Source: Escherichia phage vB_EcoD_Teewinot
Sequence record: NC_073053.1
Strand: one strand, 5' to 3'
DNA: 41,800 nt
Numbering within the stretch: position 1 is the first letter of the stretch; the number at the start of each line of letters is the position of its first letter. Below are positions 22,885 to 39,903 of this stretch, piece by piece. Made by a program: the position numbers and the translations under genes. Under the pieces are notes generated by a model. The model ran no database searches, was not told the DNA's origin, and was given only the letters and a program-made list of their open reading frames with translations.

Positions 22885-22926
22885 CGTGTGGTCCTCATTG
22901 ATGCGGGCCGAAGCCCGCGATTAGAG

Positions 22927-23448: not shown

Positions 23449-23496
23449 TATGTGGTCCTTTTTAGGGGCCATATCGCCCCGACGCGTTAACTATAG

Positions 23497-23518
23497 TGCA
23501 ACCAACCTATTGGTTGCA
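23497..23518. promoter_or_regulatory. perfect inverted repeat of the ATTGGTTGCA motif (operator-like)
   Basis: TGCAACCAA-ccta-TTGGTTGCA; the TAG stop of the HAD gene lies in the 4-bp spacer. Confidence 0.5.
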
Positions 23519-23977
23519 AGTAAATTTTGCAACATTTATTGCGTAAATTTTCGGTACCAGATCGCTGCACGCCCGACGAATTGCCGCGATGTTATTCTCG
23601 CAATCTTCAATGATGACCAGTTCCGACACGTCTGCATAGCAGACCATTTTGAATACAGCGCACGCCTTAAACTCCGGCGGCGGGGTGTCGTCCAGCATGT
23701 GGCGCATAAACAACCGGCCTACGGGGAATACTTCCAATTGCTCGACGGTAGTCTCCCAGCATTCTCGCTGCCGGTTTGTCAGATACGCGATCTCGAAGCC
23801 TTGCTCTTTGTACATGCGCAACAGCGGCAGCATATCCATGTTCAGGTCTTCGCGTACATGCGCTTTGTGCCACTTTGCCCAAAAGGTTGATTTCGTTTTT
23901 ATCCCCGGCACCAGGTCGGCACGCGCATCGCTTGAACCGTTAATAACGCCATCCAGATCGCAAATCAGTAATTTCAT
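23507..23977 (-). CDS. HAD-superfamily phosphatase (putative nucleotidase)
   Basis: 156 aa beginning MKLLICDLDGVI, the DxDG(T/V) nucleophile motif of HAD hydrolases. Confidence 0.6.
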   Translation of the reverse strand: MKLLICDLDGVINGSSDARADLVPGIKTKSTFWAKWHKAHVREDLNMDMLPLLRMYKEQGFEIAYLTNRQRECWETTVEQLEVFPVGRLFMRHMLDDTPPPEFKACAVFKMVCYADVSELVIIEDCENNIAAIRRACSDLVPKIYAINVAKFTCNQ

Positions 23978-24198
23978 TTCAACTCCTCGATCAGATTCAT
24001 ACGAACAACACGGGCAGAAAAAGCGTCACACACAAGATGACAACGGGCGGTCATTACAAGCCAGCCGGTGAGGTCAAGGCCCATGATGTATTCGGGGCGA
24101 GACGCGCGCACCACACGATTGCGTCGCGGGTCAATACAGTAGTATTTTTGCATTTGGTCTACTACCGCGGGGTCGCGGTCAACGATTAAGATATTCAA
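23974..24198 (-). CDS. hypothetical protein
   Basis: 74 aa ORF, start and stop overlap neighbouring genes (translational coupling). Confidence 0.4.
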   Translation of the reverse strand: MNILIVDRDPAVVDQMQKYYCIDPRRNRVVRASRPEYIMGLDLTGWLVMTARCHLVCDAFSARVVRMNLIEELK

Positions 24199-24664
24199 GG
24201 AGTTCTCCTTCGCTCATTATTTCAATTTGTGCGCTGCCGATGGGTGGCGCTTCGTCAAAGATTATCAATTGCTGGCACTTGTTATTGCGAGGCCCGACTT
24301 CGCCGGTGACGGCGTGAATGAATCTAATCCGCCAGTCCAGAAGAATTATCAGGTTTGCAGTCTTCCTGGCCAGCTTCGCCCACTTCGTCGACGTGTCCTG
24401 ATTCAGTAGCATGACAGTCCGGCGTCCGTGCGCTGCACACTCGACCCACGGCAGCGGATCGGAATACGGCGGATTGCACCACTTCCACCCTTTCAACTCT
24501 GACCAGTCCACATCAAGCGCGCTGTGCTCTGCCGTGAAGTAACGCGGTAGCAGATGGTTGGCGTAGCTTGCCGCCATATCGTAACGGAATCGGAACTTAC
24601 GGCGCAGCGGTTTAAATAAAGCTGGCGGCGTGCGCCAGCTATCTTTCTGCTCACTCTTCTGCAT
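24179..24664 (-). CDS. DNA N6-adenine methyltransferase (phage Dam-type)
   Basis: 161 aa with DSWRTPP near the N-terminus and WCNPPYS (NPPY catalytic motif). Confidence 0.7.
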   Translation of the reverse strand: MQKSEQKDSWRTPPALFKPLRRKFRFRYDMAASYANHLLPRYFTAEHSALDVDWSELKGWKWCNPPYSDPLPWVECAAHGRRTVMLLNQDTSTKWAKLARKTANLIILLDWRIRFIHAVTGEVGPRNNKCQQLIIFDEAPPIGSAQIEIMSEGELLEYLNR

Positions 24665-25094
24665 AGTCTGGATCTATCGCATACAGGGCGGTTTTCTTGC
24701 TGCTGGATAGCACGCGTTGGACTCTGGACATCTCCTCCTTACTGAGCTGTCGGCTATCGGAATAGTAGCTGCCGTTTGCACGCCACGCTATACGCACCAG
24801 TCCTTTCAGCGGTATCGAAGACTTGCGACCTTTGGGGCGCACGTACGCCTCGGCCCGTTTGCAATGCTCGCGCAAACCTTCTGCTGTGAGTCGATTTAGT
24901 GCGACGGTGCGCTGCATAATACCCATCAACTCATACAGCAGATCGAAGCGCTCCTCTAATTCCTTGCGCGCCTTCTCCTCGCCTTCATAGCTCGCCAGAT
25001 AGGTGTCTGCCAGCGCGCTAACACGTTCGGCCTGTTCGCGGGCTTCGAGGCATTGCGCGGCCCAGTAATTTTTCTCTTCTTGTAAAATTTTCAT
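24651..25094 (-). CDS. hypothetical protein
   Basis: 147 aa, helical charged N-terminal half; GGAG RBS. Confidence 0.45.
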   Translation of the reverse strand: MKILQEEKNYWAAQCLEAREQAERVSALADTYLASYEGEEKARKELEERFDLLYELMGIMQRTVALNRLTAEGLREHCKRAEAYVRPKGRKSSIPLKGLVRIAWRANGSYYSDSRQLSKEEMSRVQRVLSSSKKTALYAIDPDYAEE

Positions 25095-25337
25095 TTATTT
25101 AATCTCCGTAGTGCGGATTTCCTTGCGCGGAATAAATTTGCCGTCTTTCTCGACCCAGCAAGTTCCGAAACGCCATTGGGTATTACGGCCTGTTTGCTCG
25201 GCATATACGGTCTTGCATTCGTAGCGTTCCGTATAGTAAATAGCCGCGGTAGGTACGAAAATACAAACGGCAAACATGAGGGTGAGTATCACCCAAAATC
25301 GAAGGTCGCCGTCGTAGTCGAAAAATAATGATCTCAT
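25095..25337 (-). CDS. small membrane protein
   Basis: 80 aa with one clear TM helix (FWVILTLMFAVCIFVPTAAIYY). Confidence 0.45.
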   Translation of the reverse strand: MRSLFFDYDGDLRFWVILTLMFAVCIFVPTAAIYYTERYECKTVYAEQTGRNTQWRFGTCWVEKDGKFIPRKEIRTTEIK

Positions 25338-25351
25338 CGTGTTGTCTCCAG

Positions 25352-25383
25352 GTATTAAAAAGGGCGTCCAAACAGGACACCCT
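25352..25383 (-). terminator. minus-strand terminator
   Basis: On the minus strand AGGGTGTCC-tgttt-GGACGCCCT followed by TTTTAAT; the mismatch is a G-U wobble only in the minus-strand RNA. Confidence 0.5.
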
Positions 25384-25401
25384 TAATGTAATGCAACCAA
25401 T

Positions 25402-25725
25402 TTACGCATAAAAGTTTGGGTCGCGTGCAACGTCTACCAGGTAAAGGTTGCTTATGCGGTTGCCGTAGTGCCCTGGAGTGCGCTGGCGGCACACAACGGC
25501 GAAGCCTGGAGGGATTGTATTGCCCGTCTCAATAATCCATGCCACGCGTGCGCCAGACAGCGTCTTGCCGTTGCATTCGATGCGTGTCCCACCATCGGCA
25601 GTATTGATGTTGCCAATCTTGCATCCGGTGGACTTCAGACGGATGACTCCGGTTTTGCTGTCGTAGGTGAATAGCTGGTTAGTCATTGCGACCGAAAAAT
25701 CGATTGGTTCGTATGTAGCGTTCAT
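25402..25725 (-). CDS. HNH_3-like protein with degenerate catalytic motif
   Basis: 107 aa; ARVAWIIETGNTIPPGFAVVCRQRTPGHYGNRISNLYLV aligns by eye to the HRLVWE...G.IP.G..IDHINGD..DNR..NL pattern of HNH_3 homing endonucleases, but the DH of IDH is replaced by VC. Confidence 0.45.
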   Translation of the reverse strand: MNATYEPIDFSVAMTNQLFTYDSKTGVIRLKSTGCKIGNINTADGGTRIECNGKTLSGARVAWIIETGNTIPPGFAVVCRQRTPGHYGNRISNLYLVDVARDPNFYA

Positions 25726-25907
25726 TTTAAATTTTCCTCGTTAACCGCTATCGCGAAGCCGCGCGGAGTGAGCGACCGGATTAATTTTGTGCGGGCTGAT
25801 TTACCACCGAGGCGACTATACTGTTTCGAGTACCCTTTTTCAACGAAAACAGGTTTCTTCTCTGGCATACGGAAGCCGCTGCCGTCAAACAATGGCCAGA
25901 TTATCAT
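25722..25907 (-). CDS. hypothetical protein
   Basis: 61 aa ORF tightly packed between helicase and HNH-like gene with overlapping start/stop codons. Confidence 0.35.
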   Translation of the reverse strand: MIIWPLFDGSGFRMPEKKPVFVEKGYSKQYSRLGGKSARTKLIRSLTPRGFAIAVNEENLK

Positions 25908-27328
25908 TTGCGCGCCTTCTTAGCTTTCATGTATTCCATCAAGTCGTCCTGAATGTCTCGCTTACTGTCGCGACGCTCGGCGACCAATTCGTCCAGTGTC
26001 CCGCGAGCCTGGATAATGTAGACGAATACTGGTCGAGGGTGTCCGGCTTGCATCTGGCGAACCGGCCCGATACGTTCAACGATCTGCGAAAAGTGTTCAA
26101 AGTTCCAGGTGTCGGAGAAGATTGCCAGGTGATGACCGCCGTCCTGCAAGTTAAGGCCGTGGCCCGCCGATGCCGGGTGTGCAAACATGATGGGGATCTC
26201 GCCCCTGTTCCATGCTTCCATATCCTTATTGCCCTGCTTACCTTTACCCAACGCAACGCCGTGCGGGAATTTCTTCTTGAGACGTGCCAGATCATGCTTG
26301 TACTGGTAGGCAACGAGCAACGGTGCGCCGTTCAACTCCTCCACGATACTTTCCAGCGCGTCCAGTTTAGCGTCGTGAATTTTCACCCATTCGTCGGTGC
26401 GCTCGCCGTCTTCGTCGACCTTATACACGGCCCCGGAAGCAAGCTGAAGGCACTTAATAGTCTTCGAAGCAGCGTTCGCCGCCTCCACCGTTCCGCTTTC
26501 CAGTTCGGCAAATAGCTCCGCTTCGAATTGGTCATAAATCTTGCGGGCTTTTTTCGGCAGGTCCACAACAACCGGCGTATAGATTGGCTTGTCACACCCG
26601 AAGTATTCAGCCGCATCAACGGTTAGCGACACGTCGGACAGTCGTTGTTGTATTTCTTTCTCGGAGTTCTTAAGCGGGGCGTGCTGCATCGTGAAGCTGC
26701 CAGGCTTAACAGGCTTGCTAATAAACCAGCGGTCCGTGAACGCCTTATAGCTACTGCCGAGACGTTCGCCGCCGTCGACAAACCACGTCTGACCCCATAG
26801 GTCTTTCAGCCCGTTCGGTGCGGGTGTGCCAGTCAGGTTAATCCAGCGCTTGACGTGCTTATGTGCGATCGCTGCCAGCGCACGGGCGCGCTTACTTCCC
26901 TGCTTGCTTCTATAGCCTTTCAGCTTAGTCGATTCATCGGCAACAACGACCGTAAAGGGCCACTCGTCGCCGTAATAGTCGACCAGCCACTCAACCACAT
27001 CGTAGTTAACACAAACCACGTTAGCGTCGCTCTCAAGCGCCGCAATACGGTCCTTCTCCGGCCCGGTGCCGTCTACTACCAGCAAGGCTGGGAAGCGCCA
27101 TTTCTCCTGTTCCGGGGGCCATGTACCGGACGCAACGCGCAGCGGGGCCAGCACCAGTACGCGGTCATCCTGGTTGGACAGGATGCCAGTCTGGAACATT
27201 TTATTCAGCGCCCACATGGTCGCGCCGGTTTTACCCGACCCCATTGTCGCCCAAATATTGCAGCGCTTATGCTTGAGGATGAACGCGGTTATCAACTTCT
27301 GATATTCGCGACGTCGGAAACGTGCCAT
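25904..27328 (-). CDS. SNF2-family helicase
   Basis: Walker A TMGSGKTG, DExx box VVADESTK, C-terminal helicase domain. Start placed at ATG 27328 (MARFRRREYQ); the alternative ATG 27418 has no RBS. Confidence 0.75.
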   Translation of the reverse strand: MARFRRREYQKLITAFILKHKRCNIWATMGSGKTGATMWALNKMFQTGILSNQDDRVLVLAPLRVASGTWPPEQEKWRFPALLVVDGTGPEKDRIAALESDANVVCVNYDVVEWLVDYYGDEWPFTVVVADESTKLKGYRSKQGSKRARALAAIAHKHVKRWINLTGTPAPNGLKDLWGQTWFVDGGERLGSSYKAFTDRWFISKPVKPGSFTMQHAPLKNSEKEIQQRLSDVSLTVDAAEYFGCDKPIYTPVVVDLPKKARKIYDQFEAELFAELESGTVEAANAASKTIKCLQLASGAVYKVDEDGERTDEWVKIHDAKLDALESIVEELNGAPLLVAYQYKHDLARLKKKFPHGVALGKGKQGNKDMEAWNRGEIPIMFAHPASAGHGLNLQDGGHHLAIFSDTWNFEHFSQIVERIGPVRQMQAGHPRPVFVYIIQARGTLDELVAERRDSKRDIQDDLMEYMKAKKARK

Positions 27329-27514
27329 ATCTTTATTCCGCCTTTTTCCAGACTTCTGTTTCACTGTTCCAGTTCCTTTTTGTGGCGTCGTAGTTGGTGG
27401 CGTGTCCGATGTGCACACCGGTAGCCCGGTTTACATTCGCCCAGCTTGGTGAGTCGGTAGTGTTCTTTCATCGTCATGTCTCCCAAAAATGGCGGGACAA
27501 GCCCGCCGTATTAA

Positions 27515-27690
27515 TTATTTTTGTTCTGCACGGTAGCGGCGCTGCCGTTCGCGCTCTTTCTTATTGCGGCACGATTTGCACTCTGCCCGATACCCGTCTG
27601 GACTGCGCGCAGTCTTACCGGTGTATTTGTGGAACTGGGATAGCGGCTTTACACAGCCGCAATTACTACAACGTTTTTCTTCAATCATCT
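27515..27690 (-). CDS. small zinc-ribbon protein
   Basis: 58 aa from ATG 27690 (GAGGA RBS): CSNCGCVKPL...ECKSCRNKKERERQRRYR; the same module occurs twice in the N-terminus of the HNH protein at 28004-28606. Confidence 0.4.
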
Positions 27691-27728
27691 CTAAAATCCT
27701 CGATATGGCTAACCGGCACACTATACCG

Positions 27729-28007
27729 CTATGCGACCAATTCAGCAACCAATAAATCGCAGTCGGCTATGTTGTCGATAACGCGAACGTCCGCACCGCG
27801 GCGGGCCATTCGATCATGTTCACGTACTTGGTGCGGCTTCGGTTTTCCTCCGGGGCGCTTCACTTCGACGAACACTATTTTGCCGTTGATGATAATAATC
27901 AGGTCGGGAGCACCTGCGCGCCCCTCCCATGCCAGTTTTCTGCAGAATCCGCCGACCTCTTTAACCCGTTTCATAAGGTGACGCTGCACCTTGCCTTCTG
28001 GTGTCAT
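27729..28007 (-). CDS. VRR-NUC domain nuclease
   Basis: 92 aa from ATG 28007; DLIIIINGKIVFVEVKRPGGKPKPHQ is the characteristic D...E.K core with downstream Q; start overlaps the HNH stop (ATGA). Confidence 0.6.
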   Translation of the reverse strand: MTPEGKVQRHLMKRVKEVGGFCRKLAWEGRAGAPDLIIIINGKIVFVEVKRPGGKPKPHQVREHDRMARRGADVRVIDNIADCDLLVAELVA

Positions 28008-28606
28008 TGTCGGCTTTTCCTTACGGCAGCGATGGCAGGTCCGATAAACTTCTTCATTTCGTCCGGGGTAAACCGGTCTCCGCGGGCTATGTTGCACTCT
28101 ACGCAGCACGGCACGCAGTTATCTTTCGTATGGCCTACTGCGTTGTCGAGTCGGTCCGCGCCATTGTCGCCGGTGAATCCGCAGTATGCGCATGGTTGAG
28201 AAGTAAGGCGTAGCACGTCCTCGGTGGTTAGGTCGGTGTTTAACCCCTTCCTTTCGTCCGCCTTACGGTACTGAAAGAGCTTATAGTAAGCTCGGATCTC
28301 TGGTGTCCGGCGGTTGTACTCACGGCGGGACTTATTAGCGCACGACCGGCATTCTTTACGAATGTGTGACTGGCTTGCCAGGTTTCCGGGCCGGAAGTTT
28401 TCCGGCGTAAGCGGCTTACGTTCCCCGCACTGACGGCACGTTACGATCTCCCCGGTATACTCTCGCCATACTTCGCGCGGCGGCGCTCCTCTTTCCTTAT
28501 CTCGTCTCTCTTTCTTATACGCCGCCATGCATTTGGCGCACCACGACTGACCCTTGTTGAAAGCGGACTCATCTTTATCCGTATTACAACGCCCACAATG
28601 TTTCAT
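28004..28606 (-). CDS. HNH endonuclease with two N-terminal zinc-ribbon modules
   Basis: 200 aa from ATG 28606 (GGGGGGT RBS); C-terminal CAYCG...GHTKDNCVPCCVECNIARGD HNH motif; inserted between the polymerase and VRR-NUC genes. Confidence 0.65.
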   Translation of the reverse strand: MKHCGRCNTDKDESAFNKGQSWCAKCMAAYKKERRDKERGAPPREVWREYTGEIVTCRQCGERKPLTPENFRPGNLASQSHIRKECRSCANKSRREYNRRTPEIRAYYKLFQYRKADERKGLNTDLTTEDVLRLTSQPCAYCGFTGDNGADRLDNAVGHTKDNCVPCCVECNIARGDRFTPDEMKKFIGPAIAAVRKSRQ

Positions 28607-28673
28607 ATACCCCCCCGAAAAATAAAACGCCAGACAATATTGCCCGACGTTTCCGCTAAAAGCAACATTTCCG

Positions 28674-30965
28674 CTACTTGCGGTAGCGATACATACAATC
28701 ACCTTCTGCGGCAAGTGGGAAGCCTTTCGCCCAAATAGGCAGGTCGCACATCAGCGCGCAAAGCTCCTCTGTCGTGTAGTCGTCGGTGTCCGGCACTTCT
28801 GTGATCAATTCATCATGCACCGATAGAACGATTTCATATCCGGCGGCTTCAACGCCAGGCATGGACCACGCGAGAATATCGCGGCACAACGCCTGTACGA
28901 TGTTCTCCGTCAGTTTGCCGCCGTAGGTATACTGGAAGCCCCACTGGCGCGTCGTCTGATTCTCGCCCTGATATTTAATGCGTGTGCTGGTGCGCTTCTT
29001 GCCGGTGTCCTCGTCGATCTCGGTCGTGACCGACAGCGCGATGCCCGGGTAGCTCATGATGCGCCCGGACGGCAACTCAATTTTCAACCACCACCCCGCG
29101 GCGTTCGGATCGTCGCGCTCCTCGTCGAAGGTTGGGTCGTGCTTCGCCTTCGTGCGCACAATCTTGAGCGCTTTCCTACCGTCCGGGCGAACGTTAGCGC
29201 CAGCCCAGTATGCTTTGCCCGGATTGCGGATTGCACACAACACCGCGTCCTCAAGCTCGGCCCAAAAGGCGACCGTCTTCGGGTGAGCCTCGCGCCACAT
29301 GCGTTTGATTGCGTCACAAGTCAGCCATACGTTTTTCGGAAGTATGTATGTTGGGCGCTCGTCTTTCTTGCCTGGCTTCGGTGGGCGTTTCGCTTCGTTA
29401 ATACGAGCGTACTCATAACCGCGTTTAGCTGCCGCCCAAATGTGATCGGGGAATGTACCCTTCATCACGTCCGCCATAGCGTAAAGGTCGAGGCCCAGGT
29501 TTTTAGCGAACTGCAAGAACGCCGCGACGCCGCCACCATAGCCCAGTCCCAATTCACACGCCTTACCGATCTGGCGCAAGTCTTTGCGGTTGGCTTTAAT
29601 GTAGTCCGGGTCCAGGCCGAACATCTTACCGGCAGTCTCACAATAGATATCGCGACCGGCCCTAAACACCATTAGCGCGGTTTTCTCGCCCGCGATCCAG
29701 GCAAGTCCACGCCCTTCCACGTTGGAGTAGTCCGCTACGACAAACTTCTTGCCCTTAGCCGGGATAATGCACCCGCGAACGGTAGAGGCTGTTAGCTTAG
29801 ATATGTCATACGCCCAGTGCGCGGTCCCGCGTAACAGGGAATTGATGCCGTTGGTGAGCATGTGCGACCGGACCCAAAACGAGACGTCGCTTTCACCCTC
29901 GCGGCGTTTAATCTTCCCTTCGTGGTCGTCGCTGTACTCGCCACGTGCCAGGTTTTGAGGCTGGAAGCCTTTACCCGCCCAGCGCAGCGTGCGCTTTGCG
30001 CCACCATACTGAAGACACCCACGGCGGCGACCATCTGCGGATAAGCCGTTAACTAGCGGATTGTACTTAGTCGATGCCGTTGATGACGCACCGAGGCGCA
30101 TTTCGATAAGCGCTTTGCCTTCGTCGGGGAAGTCCGGGTCTTCAAGCAGGTCGTTAAGTGTGGATTTCTGCGCGTTGTGGATTGTGAACGCCGGGGCGAT
30201 ATCACGCAGGATTGGCAGGAAGTCATTGCCTGTCAGTTTACCACCAAATCGCTCCCAGGCTTCCTCCTTCAATTCTTCCTTATGCGCCTGCACCGCTTTG
30301 ATCGCGGCGTTCGCCAGGTCAACGTCCACATAGAAGCCGCGGTCGTTGATCAACTGGTCGATAAGCAGGATTTCATCTTCCTTCGGAGTATTACCCCAGT
30401 CCGGTATGCGCCAGTAGACCTCACGCATCGCGATAATATCCAGCGCGGCATATCGCAAAAATTTGGCCCATTCTTCAGGGTGAGTCTCGCGAGTGTAGCG
30501 GCGGATTTTGTAAGTCTTAGGGGTTGGCTTACAGAAGCGTTTGATCAGCGCCTTGCCAGCCTTATCCTTCGCGTGTTCTGCGTCAACGCCCAGCACCTGG
30601 CATTGCATGTCGAGACTACCGGGCAGCGCGTGGCGAAAGGCCATAATCATGGTGTCTTCGATCTGGCTTACCGGCAGGTCAATACCCCACTTCTCGCGAA
30701 TAACCAGGCGGTCAAACAGGAGGCCGTTAGCCATCACTATTTTTGCTTTCTTGCGGGAAACATGGCGGAGCGCCTTGCGCAGTTCACGCGGCATTGTGGG
30801 GGATTCAGTGCAATCCCATGTCTGCACGCGGCCCTCGTCGATGGCGTATGTGCAAATCATAATCTCGGTGGTTGGGTGCTCTGCGTAGGCGTACGCCCCA
30901 ACTTTCTTCAGGTCCACCCCGCTAAATGTCTCGGTGTCGAGAAACAGACGTTCGAAGTCTTTCAT
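28674..30965 (-). CDS. DNA polymerase, family A, with 3'-5' exonuclease domain
   Basis: 763 aa; N-terminal LFLDTETFSG (exo motif I-like), C-terminal SVHDELITEV (motif C) and K...YG region; GAGGATAAAG RBS. Confidence 0.85.
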   Translation of the reverse strand: MKDFERLFLDTETFSGVDLKKVGAYAYAEHPTTEIMICTYAIDEGRVQTWDCTESPTMPRELRKALRHVSRKKAKIVMANGLLFDRLVIREKWGIDLPVSQIEDTMIMAFRHALPGSLDMQCQVLGVDAEHAKDKAGKALIKRFCKPTPKTYKIRRYTRETHPEEWAKFLRYAALDIIAMREVYWRIPDWGNTPKEDEILLIDQLINDRGFYVDVDLANAAIKAVQAHKEELKEEAWERFGGKLTGNDFLPILRDIAPAFTIHNAQKSTLNDLLEDPDFPDEGKALIEMRLGASSTASTKYNPLVNGLSADGRRRGCLQYGGAKRTLRWAGKGFQPQNLARGEYSDDHEGKIKRREGESDVSFWVRSHMLTNGINSLLRGTAHWAYDISKLTASTVRGCIIPAKGKKFVVADYSNVEGRGLAWIAGEKTALMVFRAGRDIYCETAGKMFGLDPDYIKANRKDLRQIGKACELGLGYGGGVAAFLQFAKNLGLDLYAMADVMKGTFPDHIWAAAKRGYEYARINEAKRPPKPGKKDERPTYILPKNVWLTCDAIKRMWREAHPKTVAFWAELEDAVLCAIRNPGKAYWAGANVRPDGRKALKIVRTKAKHDPTFDEERDDPNAAGWWLKIELPSGRIMSYPGIALSVTTEIDEDTGKKRTSTRIKYQGENQTTRQWGFQYTYGGKLTENIVQALCRDILAWSMPGVEAAGYEIVLSVHDELITEVPDTDDYTTEELCALMCDLPIWAKGFPLAAEGDCMYRYRK

Positions 30966-31132
30966 TGCTTTATCCTCACTACGGCGTCAGCGCTGCCGAT
31001 CATGGAGAAGATGCCGTCTGACAGGGCGATCTCTTCGCCGTTGTTGCGAATCTCGGCAACTGTGAAATATTCCCCCAGTAGCTTGGACCATACTTGCATT
31101 CCGACTTTTACTTCGCTGGCTTTAATACGCAT
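30962..31132 (-). CDS. small hypothetical protein (absent from the ORF track)
   Basis: 56 aa (MRIKASEVKVGMQVWSKLLGEYFTVAEIRNNGEEIALSDGIFSMIGSADAVVRIKQ) with AGGA RBS; its stop overlaps the polymerase start (ATGA). Confidence 0.35.
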   Translation of the reverse strand: MRIKASEVKVGMQVWSKLLGEYFTVAEIRNNGEEIALSDGIFSMIGSADAVVRIKQ

Positions 31133-31144
31133 TTTTCATTGTCC

Positions 31145-31171
31145 TATTAAAAAGCCCGCATTAAGCGGGCT
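31145..31171 (-). terminator. minus-strand terminator after the SSB-like gene
   Basis: On the minus strand AGCCCGC-ttaat-GCGGGCT followed by TTTTAAT. Confidence 0.55.
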
Positions 31172-31190
31172 TGAATAGTGGGCTTTGCCC

Positions 31191-31973
31191 TTAACGGCGG
31201 CGACGTTTACGTGGCGCTTCGTCTTCGTCGTCGTCCTCATCTTCGTCATCGCGTGGCTTACGACGTTTGCGAGGTTTTTCATCTTCCTCATCGTCGTCGT
31301 CATCGCGGCGCTTGGATTTCTTGGACTTGCGCGGCTTGTCATCTTCATCATCGTCATCACGACGTTTTGACTTTTTGGACTTGCGCGGTGCTTCGTCTTC
31401 GTCGTCGTTGTCCAGGTCTTCATCGGAGCAAGAAGACCCGCCACCTCCGAAGGCTTCGCCGTCTTCACGGAATCGCAGACCCAGCAAGCCAGCCCCGAGA
31501 CCCTTGCCGTTGGTATTGTTCCATGCCCAAATATCAAGGGACACGTTGCAATAACAACCGGAGTAGATCTCCTGGCCTTCAATCTCGTCGCCGTCGATGG
31601 TCAGACCTTGTTCAGTCTGCTTCTCGCCGAGTGACGTTTGAATGATCGGCTGTTTGAACGATTTGGCGTTGATGTACAACATGCCTTCGAATTCTTCGGT
31701 TACTTCGTCGCGCTCGTCACCGTCGCGAACTGCGCATTCCTTAGAATCCTGGGCGTAGTGGCGGTCCATCCACTTATCAGCATTCTTCTCGGATTTCAGC
31801 TTGTCGGTGAGCACTGCGCGCGCTGCCGCTTCCACTTTGTCCACCTGCGGATCTTCTTTATCAAGGAGAATCACTGCACGGTATGCCGGTTTTTGTCCAT
31901 CCTGTTTAGGGGTATCACGTTCCCAAATTTTCAGGAAGCATACGCGCACATTTTTCAGGTTGACTTTAGCCAT
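31191..31973 (-). CDS. ssDNA-binding protein (T7 gp2.5-like/DUF2815-like, from memory) with charged repeat tail
   Basis: 260 aa from ATG 31973 (GAGGA RBS), beginning MAKVNLKNVRVCFLKIWE; the C-terminal third is a DDDEDDKPRKSKKSKRR-type repeat ending in RKRRRR; sits between polymerase and Cas4-like nuclease genes. Confidence 0.5.
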   Translation of the reverse strand: MAKVNLKNVRVCFLKIWERDTPKQDGQKPAYRAVILLDKEDPQVDKVEAAARAVLTDKLKSEKNADKWMDRHYAQDSKECAVRDGDERDEVTEEFEGMLYINAKSFKQPIIQTSLGEKQTEQGLTIDGDEIEGQEIYSGCYCNVSLDIWAWNNTNGKGLGAGLLGLRFREDGEAFGGGGSSCSDEDLDNDDEDEAPRKSKKSKRRDDDDEDDKPRKSKKSKRRDDDDDEEDEKPRKRRKPRDDEDEDDDEDEAPRKRRRR

Positions 31974-32063
31974 TTTCCAATTCCTCATTTTCACATGTAT
32001 CGGGGTTATTGTGAGCCACCCCGTCCGGCTTGGTTGCTAATTTACTTGGTTGCGCTTAAGCGG

Positions 32064-32306
32064 TCAAGCATTTTCATTAAAAAGATTTCTGGTAACGTAG
32101 TCGGTAGCGTTCTCGATCCAGCTTAATGGCGGGCGGTCGATATTCTTCGCCACCCAATCGGCGGCAGCTTTGCTATAACCGTCATCCCGCCAGCGGGTCG
32201 GATGCCGAATCATCCACGCCACCATTAACACGCCATGCACACAATGCAGGATAAAGCCCAGCGCGCCGATAACAAACATCAATAATATTGCGAATACTTT
32301 ATTCAT
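32064..32306 (-). CDS. small membrane protein
   Basis: 80 aa with two hydrophobic helices (FAILLMFVIGALGFILHCV and GVLMVAWMI). Confidence 0.45.
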   Translation of the reverse strand: MNKVFAILLMFVIGALGFILHCVHGVLMVAWMIRHPTRWRDDGYSKAAADWVAKNIDRPPLSWIENATDYVTRNLFNENA

Positions 32307-33729
32307 TGCTTAAGTCCTCGTCAGTAGCTACAGACCACGCAGGGCGCGGGTCGTCGATGGGTGCTAATACCGGTTTAGCCGGTGCGCGCGTTATTATATC
32401 ACACAACTTTGCCCACACTTTCGGCTTCTCGTCCTTCAGTACCTTCTCGGCATCAGTAGGGCTGAGTAATGTTTCTTTGTACATAACATCGCGCTTGATC
32501 CGGGCCTTCGTGAAGATTTCAATCACTTCGCTTTCGTCCGCCCACTTGCGGATCCCTTCCTTACCGGCAACCATTTTGAGGCCCAGCGATTCGCCTTCGC
32601 CAGCCATAACCGCCTTGAATACCGCGGACTCTATAGCCTTGATGTGCTGGCGCATTGCGTCTAAACCTTCATATGCCTTGCGCAGTTCTGCGGCGGTCAT
32701 AGCGCCTGGGGCCGCTTCTTTCTTACCACGCTTCGCACGTCGTGCCGCTTTGCGGGCTTCGCGGGTCATATTGCGATCGTGATTGGCGCATTCTTCCTCT
32801 GTCGCAATACTCACGTCGTCGCCCAGGTCTTCGTCTGTTGCCGTTGGTGGGGTCATCGTGTCGATTGCGGCCTTAGCGCGGGCGCTACACTGATCCGCAA
32901 ATCGGCACCACTGACACGCATCAACGCTCGGTCTGAAGTCGGCACGGGTGAGTCCCTTTTTGCCGCGGGCGTACGCTTCCAGGGCGGCGATAGCACGCTT
33001 GGACGCAAACTTCGCGAATATCTCCAGGGCTTCTACCGAAATATCCCACTCCGACGCCCCGCCGCAATACGGCTGGAAGATAACCAGGCGCACGGTCGTA
33101 ATGTCGTACATAGTTTTCAGCTTGCGCAGCAGGCCGAGCGCGTACAACATAAGCTGTTTGTTTTCTTTCGCCTCGACCTTATGTCGTCCCGTCTTCAGGT
33201 CGCCAACAATCAGCATGTACGTGCCGTCGGTCTTCTTCATGACCATAACCATATCGGCAGTACCGAACGTCTTAACCAGGTTGCCGTCGATCTCGAAGCC
33301 TGAGTGAAGGACGCGGGTCAGATCGGCGCGCATCTCAAGCTGAACAAACTCCGCCACTTCGAGGAGCGGTCGCCAGTGGTCGATGTACGCGTCGCACTGT
33401 TTCACCATGTCGTCGTTGACCAGTACGCCGCCTTTCGGTGCTTTCGGGTGGGCCTTTACTGGCCCCTTGCCTTCGTTCTCGACGTAGCACCCTTTATACG
33501 TCTTCGCGGTTATCAGCTTCTCACCGGCGATAATGCGGTTTAGCACGACCTCTGATACGGTGTGCATACTCGTACCGTTAATCGCCGCTTGCCCGGATTC
33601 GTTCGGGATATCTTTTTCCACCACCAGGGCGGCAGGGCAACCCATCCATTTTTTAGCACCGGACGGCCCGAGTAATGAGTGTTCCGTGTTGCTACCGGAT
33701 TGCGTTTTACGTTTTGGTTTAATCGCCAT
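32299..33729 (-). CDS. Cas4/RecB-like PD-(D/E)xK nuclease (DUF2800-like)
   Basis: 476 aa; central GDLKTG...K region and a C-terminal cysteine cluster (C-x2-C-x5-C in SVDACQWCRFADQCS) as in Fe-S-containing Cas4-like nucleases; conserved neighbourhood with SSB-like and polymerase genes. Confidence 0.6.
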   Translation of the reverse strand: MAIKPKRKTQSGSNTEHSLLGPSGAKKWMGCPAALVVEKDIPNESGQAAINGTSMHTVSEVVLNRIIAGEKLITAKTYKGCYVENEGKGPVKAHPKAPKGGVLVNDDMVKQCDAYIDHWRPLLEVAEFVQLEMRADLTRVLHSGFEIDGNLVKTFGTADMVMVMKKTDGTYMLIVGDLKTGRHKVEAKENKQLMLYALGLLRKLKTMYDITTVRLVIFQPYCGGASEWDISVEALEIFAKFASKRAIAALEAYARGKKGLTRADFRPSVDACQWCRFADQCSARAKAAIDTMTPPTATDEDLGDDVSIATEEECANHDRNMTREARKAARRAKRGKKEAAPGAMTAAELRKAYEGLDAMRQHIKAIESAVFKAVMAGEGESLGLKMVAGKEGIRKWADESEVIEIFTKARIKRDVMYKETLLSPTDAEKVLKDEKPKVWAKLCDIITRAPAKPVLAPIDDPRPAWSVATDEDLSNE

Positions 33730-33896
33730 TATTCCACCCGTGTAAACTTGACAATTACATATTTCACATTAGCCAGGCCCGCTTTTTCGACTCGGCGCTT
33801 AACTTCATTTTGCGCGTCCACAAAGCAATTGCTTGCGAACAATAAAAGAAGTGTGATCGTTTAATTCGTGGCAAGTTGCCATGACGAAGAATTTCA

Positions 33897-34148
33897 TTAT
33901 TTTGTCTCCCAGCGGTCGATTGTTTTTGCTTCGGATGCAACTGCGAAGCGAACATATTCCAGATTGGAATCCGCCCAAATATAAAAGTCGGGGTTAGTAA
34001 AGGTGGTGCGCTTAATTTGCGCGGGGGTGTTACGGCGTTTATCTATTACGGCAACGCGTGACTGAAAGCTGCCGATGCGTTCGAATAGCCAATAGTACGG
34101 GCGCTGGTCGCGGGAGTCCACCGCCTCGATTAGCGTGAAGCGTGCCAT
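33897..34148 (-). CDS. hypothetical protein
   Basis: 83 aa ORF with GAGGACGAG RBS immediately downstream of a terminator. Confidence 0.5.
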   Translation of the reverse strand: MARFTLIEAVDSRDQRPYYWLFERIGSFQSRVAVIDKRRNTPAQIKRTTFTNPDFYIWADSNLEYVRFAVASEAKTIDRWETK

Positions 34149-34159
34149 TGTCTCGTCCT

Positions 34160-34190
34160 CTAAAAATAGGCCCGCAGATTAGCGGGCCGG
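34160..34190 (-). terminator. minus-strand terminator after the acidic protein gene
   Basis: On the minus strand GGCCCGC-taatct-GCGGGCC followed by TATTTTTAG. Confidence 0.5.
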
Positions 34191-34196
34191 AATACA

Positions 34197-34640
34197 TTAA
34201 TCTTCCAGTTCGAAATAGGTTTCGACGATTTCTTTTAAATCTTTGTGGAAGTCTTCAACGTCGTCGTCTTCCAGCTTGGCGATGGATTTAATTTCGAACG
34301 CTTCCAGCAGATCATCAAATTCGTCGTTCGCGTCGTCATCGTCACCACCGGCAATAATCGCGGCATACTGTTTGATTTCGTCGCGCATCTCTGCCAGCGG
34401 ATCGGCATCTTTCTTACCTTTGCCTTTCGCCGGTGCTTTTTTAGACTTAGCCGGTTTTTCGTCGTCGTCATCTTCTACGACTTCTTTTTTAGCCGGTTTT
34501 TCGTCGTCATCTTCGACAACTTCTTTTTTGGCCTTAGACGGCTTCTTGTCTTCCTGCTTACCAACGGTTTCATAATGCTTAGCGATGGTTTCCAGTGCTA
34601 CTACTCCGCGAGTGATCAGGTTTACGATTTGCTCAAACAT
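34197..34640 (-). CDS. acidic repeat protein (candidate early anti-defence/DNA-mimic protein)
   Basis: 147 aa from ATG 34640 (GGAG RBS); runs of D/E (EDDDE, EDDDDE, GGDDDDANDEFDD, EDDDVED) and a duplicated KKEVVEDDD(D)EKPAK unit; first gene after the leftward promoter, with its own terminator. Confidence 0.6.
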   Translation of the reverse strand: MFEQIVNLITRGVVALETIAKHYETVGKQEDKKPSKAKKEVVEDDDEKPAKKEVVEDDDDEKPAKSKKAPAKGKGKKDADPLAEMRDEIKQYAAIIAGGDDDDANDEFDDLLEAFEIKSIAKLEDDDVEDFHKDLKEIVETYFELED

Positions 34641-34836
34641 GGTATATCTCCGATTGGTTAAGTTTAGGTGTCGGCAGTTAACTTCGTCGGTGGCCTTAAC
34701 ATATTGCCAGGTTACGCGTTCTCCCGTTCGGGTAGTGGACCTGGTTATATAATCACGGTTGGGAATCCTGACACTTCGATCCGGCCCCTGCGTTGCCCCT
34801 CTCCAGTTTGCGTCCTGCATCCTGTCGACGGAGTGA

Positions 34837-35043: not shown

Positions 35044-35373
35044 ATGAATATCAAAGAAGCAATTGAAGTGTTATCTAATGCAATCCGCGGCGAAGCGGGT
35101 AAATCCTGGTATTACACAAATGCGGTGGATACTCTGTTATTTGAAGTGTCCAGATTATCGCGTGCTGAGAAGGAGCTTACCGCGAAGCTGGAATTGCTCA
35201 ACGGCACGGCAGCAAGCAAGCTGCAAAAGCACAATGAAGAAATGGAAGAATACAAAAAACAGGTTATCCGTTTGCGCGCCGAGGGCAAATCCTGGGCGAT
35301 GATTGCCGAGTTGACCGGAATTAATCAGAGCACAGTGCGCTCCTGGGTACGCAATAATAAAACTTCTAAGTAA
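35044..35373 (+). CDS. HTH DNA-binding regulator
   Basis: 109 aa; C-terminal GKSWAMIAELTGINQSTVRSWV is a typical helix-turn-helix; first gene of the rightward operon. Confidence 0.65.
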   Translation: MNIKEAIEVLSNAIRGEAGKSWYYTNAVDTLLFEVSRLSRAEKELTAKLELLNGTAASKLQKHNEEMEEYKKQVIRLRAEGKSWAMIAELTGINQSTVRSWVRNNKTSK

Positions 35374-35383: not shown

Positions 35384-37648
35384 ATGAACTTAATTAAATT
35401 CGCTGTAACACGACCCGCTAAAAAAGGCGAAAAAGCCAGGGCGGAAAACTTCCAGATGACCACCGATGAGTTTTTCGAATTTATTAATGATGCGAAAGAA
35501 ATATCCTCGGTGCATATCAACAAGACGGAAGATAAAGCGGAGTATGCGCGCCGCAAGCGTAAGGCTGATGGTATTGTGGCTTATACCCGTGACGGCTTAC
35601 GCCGCAAGACCAGTGCCGTGGACCGCTCGATCCTGTTCTTCGATATCGACCGTACCGACACCCGCACCCTGCGCCGCTGCCGTAAGGCTTTCATCGACGC
35701 GGGGCTGGAGCACGTATTTCACACCACAACCGGCGACCGCCACCCGCTGAAAGGCGGCACGCGTTGCGCTCGATTCCTGGTACTCACGGACAAGCCTGTA
35801 CCGGCTGAAGACCTGGGCCGTGTCCAGTATGCGCTATTACACCAACTGGGTCTGTCAGATGTGGACTTCGACGATTGCACGAAAGACACAAACCGCCTGA
35901 TGTACCTGCCACACCAGCAGTCTGTCGTTAAGTGCCACTACGGCAAGCGCGCCCGCGTCCGTCGTCTGCTCCGCCTGGCTGACAAGCTGGGAGTCGAGAA
36001 AGAGGAAGTACGCCGCGAACTGACCCAGGGCGATGATGGTGTGGCGGACGGTATTCTGGATTGGTGCTTCCAGGCGGGATTCGAACCGCTGTCGTCTGGT
36101 CGTGGTTATGAAGTGCCATGCCCGAACGAACACCTGCACAGCGGCGAAGGGTCCACCGCTATCTTGGTTAAGGATGGCGAGATCCGTTTCAAGTGTATGC
36201 ACACCGGCAACGAGTGTTGCTCGGAGCTGAACAGACACCAGCACCTGGCGCTACGTCTTATCGGGATCCCGGACCACCTGAACGTCGAGCCACACAACAT
36301 GTCCCGTAAGCAAATCGCCGCCATCCTCCCCGGACTGGACGACGAGGAAGTGGAATCGTGCTATGAACATATCGTTGATGCGGTCGGAGACGGCGACGAG
36401 TACGGCGTGTGTACTGATGCAGACCTGGACAACGAGCCGGTCGCACTGTTCAGTAAGCACGACCCGATCATCGAAGGCCTGGTCAACTTCAAATCGACCT
36501 GGTATCTCGCCGGTGAGTCGAACATCGGTAAATCGTTCTACGTGCTGGGGCAAATGGGTGCGGTTGCCGCGGGGATTCCGTTCGGCGGTGCGAAGGTCGT
36601 CCAGTCCCATTGCTTCTATTTCGACGCGGAAGGTGGCGAAGCCTCCAACCAGCGTAAGGAAGCATTGCAGATCAAATACGAGCACGACCTCGACAAGCTG
36701 CACATTATCGATCTGCAATCACGCGGCTGGGATATCACCAGCAAATCCGGCTTGCGTGAAGTTATCAGCTTCATCAACCGCACCGCTAACGGCGAACCGG
36801 TTGGCCTGGTGGCGTTCGACTCACTCAACCAGACGGTTGCGCTGCGGTCCGCCGATGCTAAACCGTTCGACGAGAACAACGCCAGCGATATGGGTGAAGT
36901 GGTCAAAGCGCTGAAGGCCATCGCGGAAAATACAGGCGGCAGTGCTGGCGTCATCCACCACCCGGCGAAGGGTGCAAACGGCAGCAGATCCCCCCGCGGG
37001 TCCGGCGCGCTGCATGGTGCTGTAGATTCCGCGTTCTTCCTGGAGCAACCGGACGACAATCAGCCCGGACAACTTAACCTGTATCACGAGAAGGCACGTA
37101 ACGGCATCAAGCAAGCGCCGCGCGGCTTCGTCCTGCTCAAGTGCAAGGTTAAGGTGGATCTCCGCAAGTCCGAGGCGTTCGAGGCGCACCAGTCCACCAG
37201 CACCGGGCCAGACTTCGGCGACGTGGTTGCCGGATGGGACGTCAAGCCGATTGCCTCCACGCCACGCGACGAGACTCTCTACCTCGTACCGGTCGCCCTG
37301 GCACCGTTCGCTATAGAACAGGCGAAGGCGGCTGGCAAGGCCGCGGTTAAGGACGAGAATGCCGCAGGACCGCGCAACGAAAAAGAGAAAGTGCTTTATG
37401 CGGCACTGGAAAAACTGATGGAAGATAACCCGGACCATACCGGATTCAGCAAATCGGCAATTGTCCGCCAGGCGGGATTGGCAAAAGGTGGAACATCTAC
37501 GAAGGCAATAGACGATATGGTTGAGCGCGGAGTGTTAGGTTTTTATACCGATCCGCACACCGGGGCCATCTATGGGTCGTCGAATATAGTCATCAAAACG
37601 AATATACCCATCACGCTTTCTGCGACCGATGACGACCTGAAAGATTAA
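35384..37648 (+). CDS. primase-helicase (AEP-type primase domain plus P-loop ATPase)
   Basis: 754 aa; N-terminal SILFFDIDRTD (hhhDhD primase-polymerase motif) and DDCTKDTNRLMYLP, a Cys/His zinc-binding segment, then Walker A GESNIGKS. Confidence 0.7.
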   Translation: MNLIKFAVTRPAKKGEKARAENFQMTTDEFFEFINDAKEISSVHINKTEDKAEYARRKRKADGIVAYTRDGLRRKTSAVDRSILFFDIDRTDTRTLRRCRKAFIDAGLEHVFHTTTGDRHPLKGGTRCARFLVLTDKPVPAEDLGRVQYALLHQLGLSDVDFDDCTKDTNRLMYLPHQQSVVKCHYGKRARVRRLLRLADKLGVEKEEVRRELTQGDDGVADGILDWCFQAGFEPLSSGRGYEVPCPNEHLHSGEGSTAILVKDGEIRFKCMHTGNECCSELNRHQHLALRLIGIPDHLNVEPHNMSRKQIAAILPGLDDEEVESCYEHIVDAVGDGDEYGVCTDADLDNEPVALFSKHDPIIEGLVNFKSTWYLAGESNIGKSFYVLGQMGAVAAGIPFGGAKVVQSHCFYFDAEGGEASNQRKEALQIKYEHDLDKLHIIDLQSRGWDITSKSGLREVISFINRTANGEPVGLVAFDSLNQTVALRSADAKPFDENNASDMGEVVKALKAIAENTGGSAGVIHHPAKGANGSRSPRGSGALHGAVDSAFFLEQPDDNQPGQLNLYHEKARNGIKQAPRGFVLLKCKVKVDLRKSEAFEAHQSTSTGPDFGDVVAGWDVKPIASTPRDETLYLVPVALAPFAIEQAKAAGKAAVKDENAAGPRNEKEKVLYAALEKLMEDNPDHTGFSKSAIVRQAGLAKGGTSTKAIDDMVERGVLGFYTDPHTGAIYGSSNIVIKTNIPITLSATDDDLKD

Positions 37649-37960
37649 ATTTTGCGCGCATTGGGAATTCCCATATCGCTAAAGATTAAATTTTGCGCGC
37701 ATTGGTTGCCATTTTGGGAATTCCCATATCGCTAAAGATTAAATTTTGCGCGCATTGGTTGCCGATATGGGAATTCCCATATCGCTAAAGATTAAATTTT
37801 GCGCGCATTGGTTGCCATTTTGGGAATTCCCATATCGCTAAAGATTAAATTTTGCGCGTATTGGTTGCCATTTTGGGAATTCCCATATCGCTAAAGATTA
37901 AATTTTGCGCGTATTGGTTGCCATTTTGGGTGTTTTTAACTGGTCGTATTGGTTGCCGTG
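37640..37960. repeat. iteron array, about six tandem 53-bp repeats (candidate origin of replication)
   Basis: Unit AAAGATTAAATTTTGCGCGCATTGGTTGCCATTTTGGGAATTCCCATATCGCT at 37681, 37734, 37787, 37840, a 41-bp first copy at 37640 (12-bp deletion) and a degenerate sixth; each has the palindrome TGGGAATTCCCA, extended to GATATGGGAATTCCCATATC in the third copy. Starts in the last codons of the primase-helicase gene. Confidence 0.75.
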
Positions 37961-37995
37961 TAGGGTGATTATTATGAATAGTTATGCAATAAAAC

Positions 37996-38169
37996 TGCAT
38001 AAAGTAAGCGGGACAAAAAGCGGGACAAACAAGGGGCGGGACAAAGCGGGACAGCACCCCCGTCCCGCCCCGGATGGCGCGGCTTTCAGAGGAGCGGGAC
38101 AGCGGGACAGCACCCCAGTCTTTCAGACTAGACGGGGGTCAGTGGCCCCCCTCGTCTGAGACTGAATAA
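37996..38169. repeat. 174-bp GCGGGACA-array element, copy B
   Basis: Same length as copy A (11140-11313); identical over the first 60-odd bp and the last 70-odd bp except one A/G difference, with a diverged roughly 40-bp centre. Confidence 0.8.
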
Positions 38170-38307: not shown

Positions 38308-38336
38308 TTGCATTCGTGCCAGCACCCTGCTATATT
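38308..38336 (+). promoter_or_regulatory. sigma70-like promoter built from two ATTGGTTGCA copies
   Basis: TTGCAT (38308-38313, from motif copy 1), 17-bp spacer, TATATT (38331-38336), then motif copy 2 (38334-38343), GAGGA RBS and ATG 38367. Confidence 0.45.
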
Positions 38337-38366
38337 GGTTGCACACCAACAAGAGGACTGCACAAA

Positions 38367-39661: not shown

Positions 39662-39903
39662 TTATCTCCGTCCTGTTGTTTGTTATCATAGGGGCTTCGT
39701 CCCTGTTTAACGTGTATGCGCCGTCCGTCCAGGATGGCATTTTAGGCCGGGTGTTATATCTGCTAACGGCGATGATCTGCGTTATCGGATTGTTGCAAAC
39801 AGGAGACGTATCTGACACCACCTGGACCGCGTTAATCTGGTTGTTTGCATTGCGCACGCTGCGTAATGCTGTTTTGAATGGGGTAAAACATGCGATTCAG
39901 TGA
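39658..39903 (+). CDS. second holin-like membrane protein (holin/antiholin partner?)
   Basis: 81 aa with two to three TM helices, GGGGGG RBS, overlapping start/stop codons with its neighbours. Confidence 0.5.
   Translation: MIISVLLFVIIGASSLFNVYAPSVQDGILGRVLYLLTAMICVIGLLQTGDVSDTTWTALIWLFALRTLRNAVLNGVKHAIQ

Follow-up and report, generated by a model that had tools for sequence, protein, structure and literature searches.

Which function is exerted by a non-coding element of 174 bp that is present twice in the genome of Escherichia phage vB_EcoD_Teewinot, once downstream of a helicase-primase gene and once within the tail operon? The window analyzed here is the whole stretch of 41,800 nucleotides (nt) of sequence record NC_073053.1, read on one strand from 5' to 3'. 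Copy B of the element (37996-38169, + strand) consists of a TGCATAAA box, an array of short words, a centre and a double hairpin in this order, and copy A (11140-11313, + strand), also 174 bp in length, resides between the tail chaperone genes and the tape-measure gene. We consider it likely that both copies are origin-type arrays of initiator-binding words, with copy B representing an origin beside the helicase-primase gene and copy A either a second origin or a fork barrier. That copy B is part of the replication origin and copy A a second binding locus had been put forward in a preliminary description of copy B. This also emerges as the best explanation here, and a probable one, yet on a different basis, namely the presence of word arrays at the initiator genes of many phages and the co-variation of word and helicase.

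Anatomy and conservation of the two copies

As judged from matches to related records, the window stems from a Dhillonvirus, i.e., an HK578/SO-1-like Escherichia coli siphophage. The region around the element is matched by 157 phage records at 80-95% identity, nearly all of them from Escherichia/Shigella Dhillonvirus phages and including HK578, SO-1 and the BASEL phages PaulFeyerabend and KarlBarth. All of these records contain the element, in 338 places and nearly always two per record. In the window, copies A and B are in direct orientation, both on the + strand and 26,856 bp apart. They agree at 161 of 174 bases in an ungapped comparison, with which MAFFT concurs, and a repeat search extends the homology to 195 nt (11119-11313 vs. 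37975-38169, 89%). Element positions 1-65 are identical, 12 of the 13 mismatches fall into a 34-nt centre (positions 66-99) and the remaining one is located in the hairpin loop. The second copy of equal length, with identical flanks and a diverged centre, that had been noted in the preliminary description is thus borne out by the pairwise alignment proposed there.

An alignment of 28 copies from 15-16 genomes reveals invariant words, an invariant TGCATAAA box and invariant hairpin stems. Centre identity amounts to 0.88 among A copies, 0.76 among B copies and 0.60 between A and B, and flank identity to 0.86-0.88 for A versus B and 0.86-0.91 for orthologues. Because the centre is locus-specific genus-wide, the duplication is, on the evidence of these alignments, older than the genus and each copy is maintained under selection. 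This supports the earlier assertion of a functional element rather than a recent inert duplication. Identical flanks in this genome would be in line with a second copy that is an inert recent duplicate or an assembly artefact, and absence from relatives had been named in the preliminary description as counting against a functional element, but both copies are found in all 157 records and the centres are not only locus-specific but also conserved among orthologues. The comparative data have thus already refuted this alternative.

The 5' flanks of copies A and B are closer to each other within a genome (identity 0.916) than between genomes (0.855) and 100% identical in this window, which indicates some sequence exchange between the copies. 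Together with the direct orientation of the repeats, such exchange might be taken to point at recombination or packaging signals, i.e., at recombinase or terminase sites and programmed deletion or inversion, an option that had also been raised in the preliminary description. We regard it as very improbable. Headful packaging has been predicted for the group (PhageTerm on phage Opt-212), the genomes of which are oriented from the small terminase gene terS (PMC9022532). In the window, terS is found at the very start, and the elements are 11 kb and 38 kb away from it. A site-specific recombinase was not noticed in the annotations of four related Dhillonvirus genomes, and deletion between the copies would lead to the loss of essential tail and replication genes. 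The same arrangement is kept in the 157 records and, in other phages, the arrays track replication genes and not terminase genes.

The word GCGGGACA occurs 16 times in the window compared to an expectation of 1.78, a number not attained by any of 100 shuffles. Six of these words are present in each element (+ strand), a further two belong to palindromes that immediately precede copy A, and the last two stand alone at other places. The CGGGAC core clusters at two loci only, 14 times at 10998-11252 and seven times at 38009-38108. Directly upstream of the copy B array lies an AT-rich stretch of 44 nt (37964-38007; 75% A+T vs. 46% in the window) that holds the dyad TTATGCA-N7-TGCATAA (37982-38002). 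The array starts with four direct GCGGGACA words (38008-38053, + strand, with starts at 38008, 38020, 38036 and 38046), the CGGGAC core of which is invariant in the 28 copies; start-to-start spacing of these (G)CGGGACA words is 12, 16 and 10 nt. The fourth direct word is joined by an inverted CGGGAC word (38062-38067, - strand) in a head-to-head dyad. The inverted word reads GTCCC(G/C), and the dyad is a contiguous palindrome, GCGGGACGTCCCGC, in some relatives (alignment variants L002, L004_A, L005 and L036). Then come the locus-specific centre (38061-38094, + strand, element positions 66-99), which overlaps the inverted word, two abutting GCGGGACA words (38094-38109, + strand, starts at 38094 and 38102) and the double hairpin of 49 nt (38116-38164, + strand, CAGTCTTTCAGACTAGACGGGGG-loop-CCCCCCTCGTCTGAGACTG) with its invariant stems and variable loop. 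Copy A features an AT-rich stretch of 42 nt with TGCATA half-sites upstream of the array (11110-11151; 69% A+T vs. 46% in the window), the word array itself (11152-11253, + strand, GCGGGACA starts at 11152, 11164, 11180, 11190 and 11246, CGGGAC core at 11239) and a double hairpin (11260-11308, + strand) that differs from that of copy B in one loop base.

TGCATAA is a second word concentrated at both loci, where six of its nine window copies are found (sites at 11062, 11140, 11354, 11371 and 37982-38002). Two direct copies straddle the ribosome-binding site and the start codon of the tape-measure gene, and the word looks like an operator for some dimeric protein. Two further ideas about the element were rejected. 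A coding function is incompatible with the irregular word spacing (12, 16, 10 and 8 nt) and with 1-nt indels among relatives that break any frame. The other idea was a partition centromere, and no gene with a partition annotation was seen in those related Dhillonvirus genomes that were looked at.

Word arrays at replication genes of other phages

The gene upstream of copy B (35384-37648, + strand) encodes a replicative helicase-primase of 754 amino acids (aa) with an AAA_25 domain at aa 357-531 (Pfam), a match to phrog_3228 ('replicative helicase-primase') and an N-terminus that matches primase PHROGs. The copy B array begins 360 nt past the stop codon, and nearer to it in relatives that lack a 53-bp repeat expansion described below. 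OLD-escape mutants of phage HK578 are affected in gp46, the helicase-primase, and in the gp45-gp46 promoter; the authors of that study read these as replication-initiation genes and define no origin (bioRxiv 10.64898/2026.07.10.737580).

Scanning of IMG/VR viral contigs for two GCGGGACA words within 8 nt yielded at least 120 loci, about 26 of them from Dhillonvirus, a set that was selected on the word itself and whose proportions are not population estimates. Dense CGGGACA/TGTCCCG arrays, defined as at least six core words in 400 bp, are present at 43 or more loci outside of Dhillonvirus (43 of the 94 non-Dhillonvirus matches listed), with up to 21 words per 400 bp and words in both orientations. 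Array-bearing unrelated loci include L011, L012, L015, L019, L029, L059, L062, L075, L079, L087, L095 and L116, and G+C content is 57-67% in the nine unrelated array loci checked. Clustering of the neighbouring open reading frames (ORFs), followed by annotation, showed which genes accompany the arrays among these 43 listed matches. At 17 loci, the array adjoins a Prim-Pol + AAA_25 primase-helicase of 600-830 aa that is homologous to the window helicase, at four it is located behind a Toprim-type primase-helicase and at one behind a D5-like primase-helicase; in 21 of these 22 cases it starts -221 to +49 nt from the stop codon. At 13 further loci the array is situated inside a replication initiation/DnaD-like gene for 225-329 aa (phrog_270, phrog_2514), just past the part encoding an N-terminal winged helix-turn-helix (wHTH). 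This places 35 of the 43 arrays at replication genes, which is where known phage origins are found. The helicase core of the window protein is shared with 15 array-bearing unrelated loci, and its identity with the array-associated helicases is 23-29%. Loci L055 and L086 were set aside as coding tandem repeats. A control scan with pairs of GGGGGAGA found dense arrays in 13 of 120 matches listed, several of them simple tandem repeats, and among its loci is L219, a Guernseyvirinae-like relative with an array right behind the helicase gene.

Salmonella phage vB_SenS_SE1 (Guernseyvirinae) possesses a helicase-primase that is 45% identical to that of the window over its full length. At the position of copy B it carries an element (L129 3885-4110) that begins with an AT-rich stretch and three copies of GGGGGAGA, continues with a partial, C-rich word in inverted orientation and a centre, and closes with one further word and a stem-loop; GGGGGAGA clusters nowhere else in the SE1 genome. 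When the SE1 and window proteins are aligned, the helicase core is better conserved and the C-terminal wHTH-like stretch is least conserved. A second SE1 word, ATGTTGGC, flanks the element and is also found at other sites in the genome, analogous to the promoter-like word of the window (see below). In Rhizobium phage 16-3, the primase/helicase p101 is 69% identical to the L012 helicase, and fifteen CGTGACA/TGTCACG words (56245-56611, corresponding to L127 4245-4611) follow directly after p101, at the same place where L012 features CGGGACA. The 16-3 array has the same architecture as that of L012, with an embedded intrinsic terminator hairpin, and only scattered singles are present elsewhere in the 60-kb genome. 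This array probably is the undescribed origin of phage 16-3. As position and architecture are conserved and the word changes with the helicase, the words behave as expected of cognate iterons. Location downstream of the helicase gene is not a universal rule: in Kagunavirus G AB-2017 there is no array downstream of this gene, and clustered words (CGAAACGA four times and CTCACTC five times, L130 29259-29531) lie upstream of the HTH/helicase operon, so that the position of the putative origin is not fixed across Guernseyvirinae.

Which protein would read the words? On balance, we favor the C-terminal winged-helix-like region of the helicase-primase (about aa 650-754) as the candidate binder. Its sequence pattern (VLYAALEKL...FSKSAIVRQAG...TSTKAIDDMVERGVL) and predicted secondary structure (H-H-H-strand-strand) fit a wHTH, at a predicted local distance difference test (pLDDT) score of 38 for the model and no Pfam match at E <= 10. 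A less probable candidate is the 109-aa helix-turn-helix (HTH) protein (Pfam HTH_23 / Sigma70_r4_2) encoded in the same operon (35044-35373, + strand); no homologue of it is found at the corresponding place in Salmonella phage SE1. The remaining probability falls to some other binder. A PDB sequence search with the window helicase gave no match. A hidden Markov model (HMM) of the C-terminal domain common to the 17 array-associated helicases (WRxxFY...KKKAFxRA) detected nothing in the window ORFs, and neither did an HMM of the initiator N-terminal wHTH. Comparison of the array-helicase C-terminal domain with the initiator wHTH by hhalign was not significant. In a set of 5.8 billion proteins, a single fragment was the only homologue of the helicase C-terminus, and there is consequently no alignment for structure prediction of this region.

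Locus A, hairpins and transcription signals

Locus A is a gap of 385 bp that extends from the chaperone stop (10992) to the tape-measure start (11377) and interrupts the tail operon. Besides copy A it contains two palindromes of 36 nt, each with four words, two direct and then two inverted: P1 (10995-11030, GCGGGACAGGCGGGAC/GTCCCGTTTTGTCCCGC), which starts 3 nt past the chaperone stop, and P2 (11074-11109), likewise a head-to-head dyad of four words. All 14 genomes examined keep this architecture, even where the palindrome centre differs, and its head-to-head layout recalls the site II pentanucleotides of SV40, which serve double-hexamer assembly. Downstream of copy A, 37 nt before the tape-measure start codon, an extended -10-like sequence TGATACAAT (11332-11340, + strand) is invariant in 14 Dhillonvirus genomes, which suggests a separate promoter, downstream of locus A, for the tape-measure gene and the distal tail genes. 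The locus is thus bounded by P1, an annotated terminator in HK578, and by the conserved extended -10.

Because the words occur in both orientations as dyads, in P1, in P2, in the elements and in the arrays outside of Dhillonvirus, recognition of double-stranded DNA and head-to-head loading of a helicase would fit well. Each element would then work as DNA, i.e., as iterons for the phage's own initiator, and neither as coding sequence nor as RNA. At copy B, the helicase-primase would assemble, melt the adjoining AT-rich DNA and prime synthesis. Locus A, consisting of copy A, P1 and P2, would act either as a second origin or as a tightly bound site that stalls forks and thereby leads to the switch to concatemer synthesis. 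More speculatively, the hairpin might end upstream transcription, provide a single-strand priming signal or do both; it might also be a weak terminator.

Folded as DNA, the 3' double hairpin is stable (z = -3.3 in B and -4.4 in A), and so it is in the RNA fold of the element; this fold as a whole is more stable than those of shuffles (z = -2.8). A structured RNA made from both loci would be in accordance with this result, with the layout of the unit, in which a -10-like box, some 160 conserved nt and a closing hairpin follow one another, and with six full words all on the transcribed strand. It might be a small RNA running from just past the TGCATAAA box up to the hairpin, an RNA acting in cis in the manner of lambda nut or HK022 put, or a protein sponge in which words containing GGA are repeated; two copies downstream of two transcription start regions do recall nutL/nutR and putL/putR. 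Nevertheless, such an RNA appears quite improbable to us. Rfam has no match in the whole window at the gathering threshold and none on the element at E <= 1. Scanning for promoters gave no sigma-70-type match near copy B and, at locus A, nothing more than a weak ATGAGA-18-CATAAT site, and the hairpins lack a U/T run, being followed by GAATAAAAT in B and GAATAAGG in A. In the 3' hairpin, 20 pairs are formed (98% paired), 14 of which are constant, and two-sided changes are confined to the apical pair (four sequences). Covariation is thus essentially nil, and a search for compensatory changes, as envisaged in the preliminary description, has no power where the stems are invariant, with the apical pair alone co-varying. 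A central helix is specific to copy B: no more than 72% of its cells are paired, and copy A does not conserve it. Finally, the words of other phages are found in both orientations and inside coding sequence, which argues for recognition as DNA.

Upstream of copy B and outside of the 174-bp element, a 53-bp tandem repeat (37608-37983, + strand) is present in six copies, each with the word ATTGGTTGC. These are the iterons beside which the preliminary description had placed copy B. This placement is only partly right, and the repeat does not serve as evidence for an origin, being a window-specific expansion of a promoter-like word that occurs genome-wide. At this place, all 13 relatives checked have one to three copies of the core word TTGGTTGC, and the six-copy expansion is specific to this genome. 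Word sites near copy B keep fixed positions among relatives, at -47 and -82 upstream and at +59, +150 and +181 downstream. Altogether, the window contains 17 exact copies of ATTGGTTGC, and about eight sites are found outside both the tandem repeat and the copy B flanks; those outside of the tandem repeat are located at 5277, 5290, 21516, 23509, 25393, 27745, 34844, 38220, 38303 and 38334. Several read ATTGG plus TTGCnn (-35-like), 16-17 nt and a -10-like hexamer (e.g., 27753, 21524 and 38303). ATTGGTTGC may accordingly be an early/middle promoter motif or the site of a regulator, perhaps of the 109-aa HTH protein, and transcription into the element could matter. The tandem repeat is a six-fold local expansion of one promoter-associated word and no independent evidence for an origin. 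We also note a promoter/5'-untranslated region cassette of about 28 nt, TATATTGGTTGCACACCAACAA(C)GAGGAC, which is nearly identical at 5262-5298 (- strand) and 38329-38362 (+ strand) and precedes two different genes.

These signals bear on a further possibility, i.e., that the elements are transcription-control modules without any role in replication: a transcription factor of the phage would occupy the words, with the hairpin as terminator or attenuator, such that early and later units are parted at two operon boundaries, one behind the helicase operon and another where the chaperone genes give way to the tape-measure gene. Both copies indeed lie between transcription units, copy A is followed by the conserved extended -10 TGATACAAT and copy B by promoter-like ATTGGTTGC sites, the hairpins are stable, and the annotators of HK578 and CS16 put predicted terminators on P1 and on the central hairpin of copy B. 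We nevertheless hold this explanation to be unlikely, since the hairpins have no U-run and a terminator scan detected no + strand intrinsic terminator at either copy, since the promoter-associated word of this genome is another one, ATTGGTTGC, and since both the arrays at primase-helicase 3' ends or inside initiator genes and the joint change of word and helicase would be left unexplained.

Returning to the arrays as origins, several observations weigh against this interpretation. All six full words of each element point in the direction of transcription and, with a -10-like TGCATAAA box in front and a hairpin at the end, give it the look of a small transcription unit. Copy A is remote from any replication gene. 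SE1 and 16-3 are single-locus relatives that manage without a second copy, GC skew in the window tracks gene orientation and marks no origin, and the selection of the IMG/VR loci on the word itself has been mentioned above. With regard to the helicase C-terminus, Pfam gave no match at E <= 10, the single-sequence AlphaFold model of residues 601-754 (pLDDT 38) was unusable and not taken to a fold search, and the Dhillonvirus region has no detectable similarity to the C-terminal domain of the other array-associated helicases.

A more far-reaching combination, a two-site replication programme joined with (G)CGGGACA-type words as a common origin vocabulary, can be suggested only tentatively and is rather doubtful as a whole. 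At copy B, the head-to-head GCGGGAC dyads would be the loading sites of the fused AEP-primase/RepA-type helicase, with the invariant double hairpin as priming signal, and the denser locus in the tail operon (three dyads, 14 words) would function either as a second origin or as a programmed barrier to forks that switches replication over to concatemers. At least three unrelated initiator architectures would use the word: Prim-Pol/AAA_25 proteins, Toprim or D5-type primase-helicases and lambda-O/DnaD-like organizers. The DNA-binding domains of these architectures have no detectable homology to one another.

The gene order of the window agrees with that of annotated relatives. Terminase, head and tail genes (about 30-22,300, + strand) are followed by a block for DNA metabolism (22,300-34,800, - strand), and right of 34,800 the genes for the 109-aa HTH protein and the 754-aa helicase-primase, small genes and lysis genes are again on the + strand. 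Some repeats elsewhere in the window may be mentioned. At 7893-8100, a tandem repeat of near-perfect 27-bp units, which have a sub-period of 9 bp (GAACCGGAACCACCGGTACCAGCGCCA), would code for a Pro/Glu-rich linker, either inside a head-region gene or at its end, and GA(C/T)GA-type low-complexity repeats in - strand genes (31207-31425 and 34441-34530) would encode acidic stretches. The 207-aa product of 34197-34820 has a weak BUD22-like low-complexity match and nothing else. Two similar terminator-like hairpins, ATAGGGGCTTCGGCCCCTTTT and ATAGGGGCTTCGTCCCTGTTT, are found at 20201-20228, after the host-specificity gene, and at 39681-39708, within the small-gene cluster.

Significance and comparison with known systems

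In the literature on Dhillonvirus, HK578 repeats, GCGGGACA and the 16-3 origin we found no description of the element, and a Dhillonvirus replication origin is not defined in the literature searched. Few siphophages of E. coli are as common as Dhillonviruses in collections such as BASEL and among therapy candidates, and the two loci would provide testable origin candidates for this very common coliphage genus, even if the element is of a kind already known elsewhere. Should our interpretation be true, the origin and a second cis-acting site would be pinned to word arrays of about 50 bp that can be mutated and cloned, and the odd non-coding gap of 385 bp inside the tail operon would be explained. 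Iteron dyads and hairpins would also become candidate DNA structures for origin-sensing defence systems, given that the OLD-escape mutants of HK578 map to the adjacent helicase-primase operon. The rule that word arrays are located at primase-helicase 3' ends and that the word co-varies with the helicase could serve to annotate origins in many uncultured phages.

In phage lambda, the origin lies inside gene O and its iterons are 19-bp palindromes. The 13 CGGGACA arrays of other phages (among the matches listed) that reside inside an initiator gene after its N-terminal DNA-binding domain resemble this arrangement, which is not that of Dhillonvirus. lambda nutL/nutR and HK022 putL/putR each constitute two copies of a conserved structured element, one per transcription unit. 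They differ in that they act as RNA just downstream of early promoters, whereas our words are elsewhere found in both orientations and within coding DNA. Hairpins formed by lambda iterons have also been discussed (bioRxiv 10.64898/2026.07.10.737580).

Closer parallels exist among self-loading helicases and primase-helicases. Phage P4 reportedly needs a second iteron locus, crr, besides ori. Octamer iterons for the C-terminal winged helix of a fused primase-helicase and two iteron loci involved in replication are features it would share with Dhillonvirus, but the P4 alpha protein combines a Toprim primase with a superfamily 3 (SF3) helicase, ori and crr are about 4.5 kb apart, crr is a tandem duplication and there is no sequence similarity. 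The winged-helix domain of alpha binds origin repeats (cited in PMC4234260). According to the same paper, the origin of plasmid pRN1 is a required stem-loop just downstream of the gene for the primase-helicase ORF904, and ssiA and ssiB of RSF1010 are treated there as well (PMC4234260). pRN1 ORF904 and Bordetella phage BIP-1 would share with Dhillonvirus an AEP-type primase-helicase, a C-terminal DNA-binding domain, a stem-loop origin on the 3' side and a small co-operonic DNA-binding protein (PMC4234260), but the pRN1 origin is devoid of iterons and the helicase is of the SF3 type. In Staphylococcus aureus pathogenicity islands (SaPI), the C-terminal winged helix of the self-loading Rep/PriRep helicases binds 6-12 iterons immediately downstream of rep that are arranged in opposite orientations around AT-rich DNA (PMC9371898). 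Short iterons just 3' of the initiator ORF would be common to both systems, and SaPI specificity likewise differs between relatives. SaPI Rep is, however, of the SF3 type and uses iterons of 5-6 nt around a central AT-rich region, while the window features an AAA_25 (RecA/RepA-like) core, words of 8 nt, one-sided AT-rich DNA, an attached invariant hairpin and two loci.

The two-locus layout finds its parallel in SPP1, a virulent headful siphovirus of roughly 44 kb with two similarly organized origins, one of which, oriL, is situated in initiator gene 38 (PMC6316719). The other, oriR, belongs to a segment by which the late genes are interrupted and which has transcription signals on either side, and gp38 bound there has been proposed to stall forks and so to bring about the switch from theta to concatemer replication (PMC6316719). 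SPP1 and Dhillonvirus both have two distant loci of direct repeats and AT-rich DNA, one at the replication genes and one interrupting late structural genes. They differ in the initiator, which in SPP1 is gp38, a separate DnaD-like organizer that works with a loader and a DnaB-type helicase, and for which a fused primase-helicase is the Dhillonvirus candidate. Furthermore, oriL lies inside gene 38 and the Dhillonvirus array downstream of its gene, the sequences are unrelated, and binding has been shown in SPP1 and is predicted here. If our interpretation holds, Dhillonvirus would offer a Gram-negative counterpart of SPP1 oriL/oriR for studying the switch from theta to concatemeric replication.

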